From a virus (Duplodnaviria > Heunggongvirae > Uroviricota > Caudoviricetes), in IMG/VR virus record IMGVR_UViG_2695420763_000004: DNA of 7,164 nt; one strand, 5' to 3'. Each line of letters starts with the position of its first letter. Positions within the stretch are counted from its first letter, which is position 1. The notes under the pieces are model-generated. The model was not told the origin of the DNA and made no database searches. It saw only the letters and a list, made by a program, of their open reading frames with translations. Both the position numbers and the translations under genes were made by a program. This document shows, in pieces, positions 1-3,700 of the stretch.

Positions 1-31
1 CCTGAAATCTTTACTGCCATATTCACCCCAC

Positions 32-58
32 AAAAAAGCCCGCCTGAACCGGCGGGCT
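32..58 (-). terminator. Putative rho-independent terminator downstream of lom
   Basis: Plus strand reads aaaaaa (32-37) then gcccgcc (38-44), loop tgaacc (45-50), ggcgggc (51-57). On the minus-strand RNA this is a 7-8 bp GC-rich stem followed directly by UUUUUU, about 27 nt after the lom stop codon (85-87). Confidence 0.6.
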
Positions 59-84
59 GTCATAACACTGTGTTACCTGGCTAA

Positions 85-669
85 TCAGAATTTATAACCG
101 ACACCCACGATGAAACCGTCAGTGCGCCAGTCGCCACTGCCGGAACCTTCATAAGCGACATCAATGGCCACGGACTCGGTCGGGTTAAACTGCACGCCAG
201 CCCCCCACGCCAGAGACGTGTTGCTGTGGCGACCGTCATCACTTCCGATCAGCACATCGTGCGTTTTCCCCTTGTTGTCAGTTACGCGGATATAATCTCC
301 GGAGAAAGTCGAAACACGGCTGTAAGCCACACCCGCCATCGCATACGCGCTGAACCATTCATTCACGCGCACAGACGGCCCCGCCATTACGCTGAACCAG
401 CGGTTACGCACGGAATCTTCATGCCAGCGGGTATCGCTGTAACGGGTCAGCTGGCGATTCTTGTCTCCTGCATAGCTGAATGACGTCACCAGCCCCAGCG
501 TATCCGTAAACTCATAACGGTATTTCACGTTAATCCCGTTAAGATCATCACTGCCGGGAACGTTGGTCCGGGCATGAAGATACCCCGCGCTCAGCGTGGA
601 CTGATGTTCAGACGCCCATGCAGGCGCACCGGATACGGCCAGACAAATGGCTGCACAAACTTTACGCAT
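85..669 (-). CDS. lom: Lom-like outer membrane beta-barrel protein (Ail/Lom/PagC/OmpX family), prophage moron
   Basis: 194-aa ORF. N-terminus MRKVCAAICLAVSGAPAWA-SEHQ looks like a Sec signal peptide with an AxA cleavage site. C-terminus ...DWRTDGFIVGVGYKF has alternating aromatic/hydrophobic residues and a terminal Phe typical of OMP beta-barrels, and matches my recollection of the lambda Lom C-terminus. Lies immediately downstream of J as in lambda. SD-like GAGAGG (plus 675-680) sits 5 nt before the ATG. Confidence 0.85.
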   Translation of the reverse strand: MRKVCAAICLAVSGAPAWASEHQSTLSAGYLHARTNVPGSDDLNGINVKYRYEFTDTLGLVTSFSYAGDKNRQLTRYSDTRWHEDSVRNRWFSVMAGPSVRVNEWFSAYAMAGVAYSRVSTFSGDYIRVTDNKGKTHDVLIGSDDGRHSNTSLAWGAGVQFNPTESVAIDVAYEGSGSGDWRTDGFIVGVGYKF

Positions 670-691
670 AATTACCTCTCGCTTTTCTGCA

Positions 692-717
692 ATAAAAAAG
701 GCGTCATTCCTGACGCC
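692..717 (-). terminator. Putative rho-independent terminator between J and lom
   Basis: Plus strand: aaaaaa (694-699), ggcgtca (700-706), loop ttcc (707-710), tgacgcc (711-717). On the minus-strand RNA: 7-bp stem GGCGUCA/UGACGCC with a GGAA tetraloop, followed by UUUUUUAUU. It sits about 23 nt after the J stop codon (740-742). Confidence 0.6.
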
Positions 718-739
718 ATTTATTGGGGTTATAAATATT

Positions 740-3700
740 TCAACGAATACTGATGCCGGAAGCCGCTTTTTTGGTCACAATCACCGTACAGTCGGTGATA
801 TTGCCTGCCCCCTGATTGCCTTTCTGGAAAATCTTAAACTCCAGAGTGACGCTACCACCACCACTAGGCATATCAATAACTGCACTGTAACTACCGGGAA
901 TGGCCCCTTTAGTTTCTCTGGATGCGATTAATACGCCGTTTTTGCGAACTTCAAAACCATAACCCGTGTATCGCGTGCCTCCTGGGTTATTTCCGCTCCC
1001 CGGATCGTCATACGCTATACCGTTAAAAATAATGGGCGGAATAATAATCTGGCGGTCAAAGTTATGATCATCGCTGATGGTGACTGTAACCGTCCCGTTT
1101 GGTGTTTCCGTGTTACCCCACGTACCGACTTTTTTCGGGAAGGCTTTTGATACAGCTTTAACGAAATCCCCTCTGACCTGGGTCGCCTCCAGCATGCCCT
1201 TAATCGTACAGTTCTGGTTAATCGTGACATTGTTGAGCGTTCCTGAGTTCGCATTCACACTACCACTGATATCCGCATTTTTAGCGGTCAGCTTTCCGTC
1301 TGATGTCAGGGAAAATACCGGAGGACTGCCACCGCTGGTAATGGTGGGGGCCGTCAGGCGCTTCAGGAACACGTCGTTCATGAATATCTGATTGCCCTGC
1401 GCCACAAACATCGGCGTTTCATTCCCGTTTGCCGGGTCAATAAATGCGATACGGTTAGCGGCAACCAGAAACTGACTCAGTTTGCCTTCCTCCGTGTCCT
1501 CCATGCTGAGGCCAATACCCGCGACATAATGTTTGCCGTCTTTGGTCTGCTCAATTTTGACAGCCCACATGGCATTCCATTTATCGTTGGCATCCTTCCA
1601 CTCTTTCGAAAACTCCTCCAGTCTGCTGGCGTTATCCTCCGTCAGCTCGACTTTTTCCAGCAGCTCCTTGCCGAGATGGGATTCGGTTATCTTGCCTTTG
1701 AAAAAATCCAGGTAACCTTCCGCATCATCGCTCGCCCGACCGACGGCCTCCACGAATGCCGATTTGCCAACGGTGTTCACACTGCGGATATAAAAGTAAT
1801 AATCATGGCCCGGTTTGATATTGATACTGGCGGCTATCCAGTACAGCGCCGTACCAAGATAGCGGGCTGTGGTTTCAACCTGCCTGATATCCGCAATCCG
1901 CTTTTCCGAGAACCAGAACTCAAACTGTACCGTCGGATCATAAACCGCAAGATGCGGCGTGGCGGTTATCTGAAAATAGCCCGGCGTCAGCTCAATCCGA
2001 GACGGCGCTGCCGGTGCGGCAATCCGGAACGATACCGATGCCGGATCGCCCTGCTGTCCCCACGCATTTACCGCCCGGACTGTCAGCCTGTAGTTCCCCA
2101 GCGCCAGTTGCGTGAAGCGGTATGTGGTTTCCGCCGTCCGGGCCGTGCTGACCAGCCGCTCACTGCCGTCATCCGCTGCCACGGTCAGGCGAAGCAGGAA
2201 GCTCACGCCCTTCACCACCTTCGGCGTGTCCCAGCGGGCCAGTACCTGATACTCCCCGCTGTCTGCGGTGACTTCGGCAGTCAGGTGCTGCACCGCTGGC
2301 GGCGTGACACCATTCACCGTGCCGCTCTGGTCGCCGTCAAAGTGCGCCCCGTTATCCACGATGGCTTCTTTTTCCGGTACATGCTGCACGGCAGTGATGG
2401 CATACGTGCCGTCATCGTTCTCACGGATACTCACACAACGGAACAGGCGCTGGCGCAACGTCGGCAACTTCAGCCCCCATACGCTGTATCCGGCAACGCC
2501 GTCAGGAACACGGCTCACTTTTACCTTCACGCCGTCGGTGACGGACTGGACCTCCACGCTGACCGGATTGCCACTTCCGTCAACCAGGCTTATCAGCGTG
2601 GTACCGGAGGATGGCAGCGTGATTTCACGGTCGAGCGTCAGCGTCCGGGTCTGGCTGTTCACCGCCAGCACGCGCCCGCCGGTGCTGATACCGGCATAGT
2701 CATCATCGCAGATTTCAATGACATCGCCCGGTACATGGCGAAGCCCTTCCGCACCCACGCTGAAGTCCACGGTCTGCGTTTCCAGCAGCTCCGTTTTAAT
2801 CAGCCACAGCCCGGCTCGGTGTGCCTGCCCCCGGCTGGTACAGCCAAAGGCATCCATCTTCGTGACGTTACGACCGTAACGGGCAATGGCCTGCGTGTCC
2901 TCCACAAGCTCTGTCGCCGTCTCCCAGCCGTTATCCGGGTCAATCCAGTTCACCTCAACGGCATTATGGCGGTCCTTGAGGGCGCTGAAGCTGTAGCGGA
3001 ACGGCGCGCCATCATCCGGCATCACCACATTACTGCGGTTATAGGTCCACACCTTATCCGACGGTCGGTCCTGCACGAACGTCAGCGTCTGCCCGTTCCA
3101 TACCGGCATACAGCGCATCGCCGAGCAGAAATCACTGAGCACATCCCACGCCTTGCGCTGTGTGGTCAGGTACGCATTACAGGTGATGCGCGGCTCCGTG
3201 CCGCCAAAGCCGTCCGGCACTGACTGGTCGCAGTACTGGCCGATGATATACAGCGCCCATTTATCCACATCCGCCGCACCAAGACGTTTTCCCATGCCGT
3301 AGCGCGGGTGGGTCAGCATATCCCACAGACACCAGGCCATGTTGTTGCTGTATGCCGGTTTTAACGTTCCATCCCAGATACCACTGTATTGCCGCGTCTG
3401 CGGGTTATAGTTCGACGGCACCTGCAGAATGCGCCCGCGAAGATGATAATTACGGCTCACCTGCTGGCTGCCGAACTGCTCCGAGTCCACCTGCACGCCG
3501 ACCAGTGCCGTGTTCGGGTAGCACTGTTTCACATCGATGATTTCGGTGTATGACGACCAGAGCGTTTTGTTCTGCAGCTGGTCTGTGGTGCTGTCCGGCG
3601 TCATCCTGCGCATCCGGATATTAAACGGGCGCGGCGGCAGGTTATCCACCACCACCGAGGCCAGATACTGCGAGGTGGTTTTGCCCTTAATGGTGATGTC

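Follow-up and report, generated by a model that had tools for sequence, protein, structure and literature searches.

In a lambda-like prophage of Escherichia coli, the outer membrane protein gene lom is probably a promoterless cassette that sits behind the terminator of the tail tip gene J and rides the late operon under Q, with no dedicated promoter that can be recognized. The whole stretch of DNA analyzed here (7,164 nucleotides; the window) is the lambda J-lom-stf junction with another lom allele and a stronger J terminator. All of its genes lie on the minus strand, and the coordinates of the features are given in Table 1.

Table 1. Features of the J-lom-stf junction, with coordinates in the window
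Feature	Coordinates	Strand	Basis
stf (side tail fibre) ribosome-binding region, GTGGGGTGAAT, and start codon (20-18)	1..31	-	Aligned with lambda orf-401, 434, and mEp460
Hairpin B, predicted terminator accompanying lom	32..58	-	Scan, fold, annotation in 434 and mEp460, missing at lom-less junctions
lom cassette, 658-nt indel relative to lom-less relatives	33..690	-	Window compared directly with L125 to L129
lom 3' untranslated region (3'UTR), TTAGCCAGGTAACACAGTGTTATGAC, 26 nt	59..84	-	Haplotype comparison
lom, Ail/Lom-family outer membrane beta-barrel protein, ATG start, 194 aa	85..669	-	ORF and Pfam PF06316
lom leader, GCAGAAAAGCGAGAGGTAATT, 21 nt	670..690	-	Sequence, haplotype comparison
Hairpin A, predicted intrinsic terminator of J (tJ)	691..717	-	Scan, fold, covariation, public annotation, presence in lom-less relatives
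Spacer after the J stop codon, AATATTTATAACCCCAATAAAT	718..739	-	Comparison of relatives
J (tail tip/host specificity protein), 1137 aa	740..4153	-	ORF and Pfam domains

The J-lom-stf junction and its relatives

The J protein of the window has the full set of lambda J domains in Pfam (Phage-tail_3, FNIII-A_GpJ, Ig_J, Phage_Tail_Tip, and Ig_GpJ_C), and the part of stf that falls within the window encodes an N terminus (MAVKISG...) identical to that of lambda orf-401, the gene itself extending beyond the window edge. Prophages in thousands of E. coli chromosomes are 97 to 98% identical to the window, and 3,507 of 5,426 complete E. coli genomes (about two-thirds) contain a copy that spans 80% or more of it. 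Over its first 1 kb, the window is 94 to 96% identical to phages including PhiR42_1, ev243, Stx2-converting phages, 434, and mEp460. The J-lom-stf arrangement is already known: it is a textbook arrangement, widely distributed and annotated in close relatives. New here is the comparison with relatives that lack lom, which assigns the hairpin downstream of J (hairpin A) to J.

The first-pass annotation of this DNA had called for a comparison with lambda lom, and that comparison showed both a close kinship and a clear divergence. Lambda (NC_001416, 18903 to 19650) shares with the window the gene order, a hairpin and TTTTATT after J, and a leader of ~22 nt with GAGAGGT before the lom ATG; near-identity extends over the final ~30 codons of lom, the 3'UTR, the hairpin downstream of lom (hairpin B), and the start of stf, and the two Lom proteins belong to the same Pfam family. 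In contrast, the Lom allele differs over most of its length (47% protein identity, compared with 95% to the Lom of 434), the lambda hairpin A is shorter and weaker, and the receptor-binding end of J differs. Phages 434, mEp460, and Ayreon are 94 to 95% identical to the window over positions 1 to 1000 at the DNA level; Lom has 199 aa in this group and 194 aa in the window, where five signal peptide residues are missing.

lom encodes an Ail/Lom-family outer membrane protein

The proposal that lom encodes a signal-peptide-bearing outer membrane protein of the Ail/Lom family is borne out by a full-length match to Pfam PF06316 (Ail_Lom; E = 1.3e-115; 384.5 bits, the cut-off being 23; residues 1 to 194 on profile positions 1 to 199) and by a signal peptide that is visible in the translation. 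Read by eye, this signal peptide is MRKVCAAICLAVSGAPAWA followed by SEHQ (669 to 613), and it consists of MRK, a hydrophobic core, and AWA before the S. The C terminus (...GVGYKF) has a terminal aromatic residue, as in outer membrane barrels, and sequence matches in the PDB include lambda Lom (9wso; E = 6e-49), OmpX, and Ail. Proteins of the Lom family are encoded by prophages, lie at the cell surface, and have been tied to adhesion, and LomW, the O157:H7 homologue, is under trial as a vaccine antigen; the timing and mode of expression of such proteins from silent prophages are of some practical interest.

Two terminator-like hairpins flank lom

Terminator-like hairpins had been described on either side of lom (717 to 692 and 58 to 32), a description with which their positions, folds, and conservation all agree. 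Matches to a terminator-like pattern are not in themselves above chance in the window (9 matches versus 6.0 ± 2.3 in shuffled sequences), and a search of positions 1 to 1200 against Rfam gave only subthreshold matches of generic terminator shape. Hairpins A and B stand out from the other pattern matches in lying in the J-lom and lom-stf intergenic gaps and in having perfect GC-rich stems and unbroken T-runs, and both are conserved among relatives.

Hairpin A (GGCGTCA-GGAA-TGACGCC, 717 to 700) has a 7-bp stem (717 to 711 paired with 706 to 700; 5 GC pairs) and a GGAA loop. Its stem is followed by TTTTTTATT, in which T6 (699 to 694) precedes ATT, and none of 200 shuffles was as stable as its fold (−12.6 kcal/mol; z = −5.3). 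Among 80 IMG/VR loci with the same Lom type, taken together with 434, mEp460, and lambda, we found 26 variants of the J-lom spacer. The stem takes the forms GGCGTCA/TGACGCC, GGCACCA/TGGTGCC (the variant carried by 434), and GGCGCCA/TGGCGCC, with stem positions 4 and 5 reading GT/AC, AC/GT, or GC/GC, plus a single G-U intermediate. In an alignment of 11 sequences, 94.8% of the cells were paired and both sides had changed in four of the seven pairs; this covariation score was reached by none of 500 shuffles, and pairing was lost when the register was slid. In a Citrobacter prophage with 69% Lom identity, an unrelated stem (AGCGCTC/GGGCGCT) occupies this position, and T7ATTGCAAAAA and a Shine-Dalgarno sequence come after it. 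Upstream of the hairpin, the spacer that follows J contains TTATAACCC in nearly all of the E. coli-type relatives examined, whether they carry lom or not (a few have TTTAACCC or TTATAATCC in its place), but not in lambda or Citrobacter. The lambda hairpin A, with a stem of 5 bp and a centroid structure of −8.1 kcal/mol, is weaker than that of the window and shifted in register, and the behavior of lambda may therefore not transfer to the phage of the window.

Hairpin B (AGCCCGCC-GGTTCA-GGCGGGCT, 58 to 37) has an 8-bp stem (58 to 51 paired with 44 to 37; 7 GC pairs), a 6-nt loop, and a T-run at 37 to 32, which is T6 if the closing T of the stem is included (after the stem, TTTTT and then G). 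Its fold (−17.7 kcal/mol; z = −4.65) was likewise equaled in stability by none of 200 shuffles. It varies little among relatives, and its Citrobacter counterpart has no T-run. In the deposited 434 and mEp460 records, both hairpins are annotated as rho-independent terminators flanking lom, and the matching region of Ayreon likewise contains two annotated terminators. The record of phage 21, which lacks lom, has a single hairpin, hairpin A, annotated as a terminator. Judged by their sequences, both hairpin A and hairpin B look like genuine intrinsic terminators.

lom is an insertion behind the terminator of J

Through a pattern search for a J end closely joined to an stf start, we found a relative without lom (L125). 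In five such relatives (L125 to L129), the J stop codon is followed by AATATTTATAACCC..., hairpin A, and TTTTTTATT, directly joined to TGTGGAGTGA(G/A)TATG, in which the ATG belongs to stf. By BLAST, this type of lom-less junction is present in 112 of the 5,426 E. coli genomes, and it is found in at least seven phage records (Tritos, HannyBb, ev207, PhiR11_1, PhiR63_1, 21, and others). A sixth lom-less junction, L237, has a different spacer, of 41 nt, ahead of stf. When 125 hairpin A sites were sampled from IMG/VR, the hairpin was followed by the lom leader at 103 and by the stf leader at 19 (18 of the common type and the L237 variant), the other 3 being unrelated look-alikes.

The lom-less phages 21, Tritos, ev207, PhiR11_1, and PhiR63_1 resemble the window in the 3' end of J, the spacer, hairpin A with TTTTTTATT, and the leader and start of stf, whereas the 658-bp cassette, including hairpin B, is missing, such that hairpin A is followed by TGTGGAGTGAGTATG of stf. 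Identical variants of the hairpin A stem occur with and without lom, and there is no lom-specific sequence upstream. Since hairpin A is present whether or not lom is, we concluded that it is the resident terminator of J and not a component of a moron. Hairpin B, on the other hand, is found only where lom is present in the comparison with L125 to L129, and it is lom's own downstream terminator. The J and stf alleles of HK97 and N15 are too divergent to define the edges of the insertion, and these phages were set aside for the lom-less comparison.

The cassette is made up of the 21-nt leader with its strong Shine-Dalgarno sequence, lom, the 26-nt 3'UTR, and hairpin B with its T-run, and the stf ribosome-binding site comes next. 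Both of its edges lie in terminator T-runs, where a TT microhomology leaves their exact position uncertain by 2 nt. Because the cassette starts 21 nt before the lom ATG, right behind the T-run, it brought no promoter DNA with it. In GC content, lom (55.7%) and the cassette (55.2%) are no different from J (56.4%) or the window (56.7%), and base composition thus provides no signature of horizontal transfer.

The first-pass annotation had pointed out that only ~22 nt (691 to 670) separate the end of the upstream hairpin (692) from the lom ATG and that the Shine-Dalgarno sequence takes up this space, leaving no room for a promoter. We confirmed the spacing, with the Shine-Dalgarno sequence GAGAGG at 680 to 675, 5 nt before the ATG. 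The argument built on it, that a lysogenic lom promoter must lie within or upstream of the hairpin unless lom is expressed by read-through, is sound, and the lom-less relatives add to it that the cassette begins directly after the T-run. The leader is invariant across 70 distinct haplotypes; from the T-run to the ATG, 0 of 30 sites vary, versus 68 of 200 third codon positions of lom. In the same number of haplotypes the 3'UTR has one variable site, and it is identical in lambda despite the 47% identity of the Lom proteins. As far as sequence comparison goes, the conservation of the leader and 3'UTR fits selection on termination and translation signals, and by itself it reveals no promoter.

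Search for a lom promoter

A scan for consensus sigma-70 promoters found none on the minus strand in positions 1 to 1500, and a scan of the whole window found nothing near lom on that strand. We also used a sigma-70 weight matrix, which is approximate and which gave 15.4 bits for lacUV5 and 13.3 bits for lambda pR as controls. The best match adjoining lom was ATGGCG-17-TTTATT (719 to 691), whose 6.6 bits are attained roughly once in every 125 nt of the window. Within J, TTGATA-16-TAGCGT (876 to 849) scored 10.0 bits, the third best match on the minus strand of the window. Applied to 55 distinct upstream regions of relatives, the matrix gave no candidate at a fixed position across J alleles or in lambda. 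The promoter prediction that had been suggested as a check on this DNA thus found no sigma-70 promoter, conserved or above chance, in or upstream of hairpin A, a result with which an atypical or activator-dependent promoter would be compatible.

Other candidates, picked out by eye, were rejected. TATAAC (735 to 730) as a −10 element has no usable −35 element, and its start would place the entire hairpin in the RNA; in TTGAAA...CCCCAATA, taken for a sigma-32-like pair, just 9 nt separate the two elements; and the sigma-E and PhoP-box readings were poor matches and not conserved.

The literature that we searched contained neither a mapped lom start site nor a named J terminator. Lambda lom has been described as transcribed in lysogens or expressed from repressed prophages, and both its expression in lysogens and a benefit to the host have been reported; an array study failed to detect it and pointed out that knowledge of its promoter is scant. 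In Phi24B, lom expression appeared to be uncoupled from induction. Failure to match the sigma-70 consensus is no proof of absence, and the literature on lambda lom in repressed prophages implies some promoter.

Transcription of lom in lytic growth and in the prophage

In lambda, RNA polymerase that Q has modified at the late promoter passes through intrinsic terminators. Neither Q nor the late promoter falls within the 7-kb window, and by analogy with lambda, J, lom, and stf would be cotranscribed by Q-modified polymerase during lytic growth, with lom as a passenger of the late operon. Since stf lies beyond both hairpins, the late transcript would have to cross both of them, and both would be transparent in lytic growth; given Q antitermination, which the first-pass annotation left out of account, read-through would be the default lytic mode and no special case. 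In a repressed prophage, unmodified polymerase coming from the tail genes would be halted at hairpin A, which would shield lom (or stf, in the lom-less phages) from stray transcription of the tail genes, and hairpin B would halt polymerase transcribing lom before the tail fibre could be expressed. Any lysogenic expression of lom would arise by leak-through at hairpin A or from a weak or activator-dependent start overlapping it.

An alternative that fares better than the others, although we consider it unlikely, is a dedicated lysogenic lom promoter inside the J terminator, with a −35 element in the 5' arm of hairpin A (719 to 714), TTTATT (696 to 691) as the −10 element, and a start at ~684. 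With the hairpin lying upstream of its 5' end, the lom mRNA would avoid termination, whereas transcripts from J would still be stopped. This is the sole weight-matrix match that would start between the hairpin and the Shine-Dalgarno sequence, but its score is at chance level for the window, and position 2 of its −10 element is not the key A. All E. coli-type variants, as well as Citrobacter and lambda, retain TTTATT and the A-rich leader, and no site varies among the 70 haplotypes over the 30 nt that lead from the T-run to the ATG; conservation of the T-run is, however, explained by termination anyway, and in the putative −35 element, which is GC-rich stem sequence, the covariation preserves base pairing rather than a match to TTGACA. 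The reported expression of lambda lom in lysogens would agree with such a promoter, yet the same elements precede stf in the lom-less phages, where a lysogenic promoter makes little sense.

For the promoterless, terminator-to-terminator lom unit, a further reading, distinctly unlikely in our estimation, is that it is gained or lost by joining within T-runs and that its lysogenic expression comes from a cryptic start in the J terminator, the mRNA beginning beyond the 5' arm of the hairpin and so evading the terminator that halts transcripts from upstream. If this were true, the terminator would double as an insulated promoter, and terminators would be points of accessory gene exchange in lambdoid tail operons. 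A minor variant of the cryptic-start reading would have the invariant 3'UTR and hairpin B released as a small regulatory RNA.

Very unlikely is a lysogenic promoter in the 3' end of J (the candidate TTGATA-16-TAGCGT), with hairpin A acting as an attenuator whose partial read-through would give a low level of Lom. The logic of the first-pass annotation permits such a promoter, and TTGATA lies within a VIDMP coding motif that is conserved in several J alleles; fewer than half of the close relatives, however, share the −10 half (elsewhere it reads AAGCGT or TCACAT), and neither lambda nor the other J alleles have it. Although the 10.0-bit score ranks high on the minus strand, a match this strong is expected by chance once per ~2.4 kb. 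Moreover, with all the hallmarks of an efficient terminator, hairpin A would let little transcription through, and the same J ends precede stf in the lom-less phages.

That the hairpins are not primarily terminators but protective or processing structures at the 3' ends of the J and lom messages, or recombination joints for accessory cassettes, is highly improbable. In favor of such roles, each edge of the indel coincides precisely with one of the T-runs, with 2 nt of microhomology, Q-modified polymerase would ignore terminators in the sole heavily transcribed phase, and the Citrobacter hairpin B has no T-run. However, the GC-rich stem and unbroken T6 or T7 of hairpin A in E. coli and Citrobacter, with compensatory changes, make up a full terminator signature, and the roles are not mutually exclusive.

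The lom unit and the definition of a moron

The arrangement had been called typical of an insulated moron, a description that, in the strict sense of the term, does not hold for the promoterless cassette that we favor: the upstream hairpin is the terminator of J and is kept without lom, lom has no detectable promoter of its own, and its GC content is not deviant. The definition of a moron derived from HK97 and HK022 (Juhala et al. 2000, as summarised in PMC3594210) includes an own promoter and a deviant base composition. lom agrees with this definition in being extra DNA between genes that are adjacent in relatives and in having its own downstream terminator, and it departs from it in base composition and, on the evidence of the sequence scans, in the promoter. 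The HK97 and HK022 morons resemble the lom unit in that an extra gene with its own terminator lies between genes adjacent in relatives, inside the late/tail operon, and the HK97 and N15 records have putative terminators annotated in the tail operon beside morons, as at lom.

The promoter problem is narrowed by these comparisons: the cassette carries no promoter DNA, the upstream terminator is that of J, and phages with and without lom that have identical flanks are ready-made controls. A separate scan of genome contigs for distant Lom loci returned mostly lambda DNA contaminating unrelated assemblies, together with one usefully divergent junction, that of Citrobacter.

A five-residue deletion in the Lom signal peptide

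The Lom protein encoded in the window is 194 aa long versus 199 aa in nearly all relatives, the difference being five residues of the signal peptide (MRKVCAA[ILSAA]ICLAV..., in which the bracketed residues are those missing from the window). In the relatives, the 8-nt repeat GCAGCCAT is present twice, with the copies 15 nt apart, so that replication slippage between them would yield exactly the deletion seen here. Among 5,426 Escherichia coli genomes, alignment without a gap at the 15-nt deletion was found in very few places only, for example, in NZ_CP148326. A solved structure, PDB 9wso (chain C), has been deposited as "Outer membrane protein lom" and has 206 aa, which is the length of the lambda protein; no publication on it was found in the literature searched.

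Coordinates of the lom features compared
Feature	Window position	Position in relative	Strand	Basis
Lom signal peptide	669-613; deletion point near 647-645		minus	comparison with relatives
lom 3'UTR, 26 nt	59-84	L003 1187-1212		comparison with lambda and 70 haplotypes

The lom 3'UTR and the downstream hairpin

The window and lambda have the same lom 3'UTR, in which a single site varies among 70 haplotypes, although their lom coding sequences share only 47% identity at the protein level. The identity of the 3'UTR could reflect either a recombination boundary inside lom or a function of the 3'UTR itself, which may form a small AU-rich hairpin (GUAACA/UGUUAU). In Citrobacter meridianamericanus (L091, 2100-2145), the hairpin that follows lom (GCCCGC-TTCCCG-GCGGGC) is succeeded by ATCTTAT and has no T-run, showing that, of the two terminators, only the upstream one is universally canonical.

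Duplications and rearrangements at the J-lom junction

In one locus (L172, 4262-5784), the unit consisting of a J 3' fragment, hairpin A (the J terminator hairpin), and lom is tandemly repeated, with two differing hairpin A stem variants 1,496 nt apart, which suggests recombination between two prophages at the J-lom junction. PhiR49_1, a phage record matching the first 1 kb of the window, likewise has "Lom (x2)" in its match listing. A second locus, L207, carries two copies of hairpin A on its reverse strand, at about 10508 and 13259. After one of them, GCAGAAAAGCG gives way to unrelated DNA, an insertion or rearrangement within the lom leader, immediately 5' of the Shine-Dalgarno sequence; about 2.75 kb farther along, a second J end, hairpin A, and lom are intact. 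Upstream of lom in L081, all DNA up to and including the hairpin A 5' arm has given way to unrelated sequence (...CTGGCATTACACCAGAAATGGTGCCTTTTTTATT), which places the breakpoint inside the hairpin. Frameshifts or early stops make lom a pseudogene in E. coli ECMA0423 (L090), where the stem of hairpin A has lost 1 nt as well, and in Shigella flexneri SFBU0723 (L112).

Lambda-type lom in unrelated assemblies

The genome contig search for Lom loci also returned lambda-type lom from assemblies of unrelated organisms (L093-L111, L113, and L115-L122), including Neobacillus, Kitasatospora, Bradyrhizobium, Pseudomonas, Shewanella, and Enterococcus. The contigs have low coverage, and some are as large as the lambda genome. 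These sequences are apparently lambda DNA itself, almost certainly derived from laboratory or sequencing control contamination.

Features of the opposite strand

Hairpin A (700-717) has a weak terminator score on the plus strand as well, with ATTTATTGGG as the tail, since the gene strand carries an A-rich tract (AATAAA) before the hairpin. It is therefore possible, from these sequence features, that the hairpin acts bidirectionally, against antisense transcripts too. The plus strand also contains a 564-aa open reading frame antisense to J (1529-3223), which probably results from the GC richness of the coding strand.
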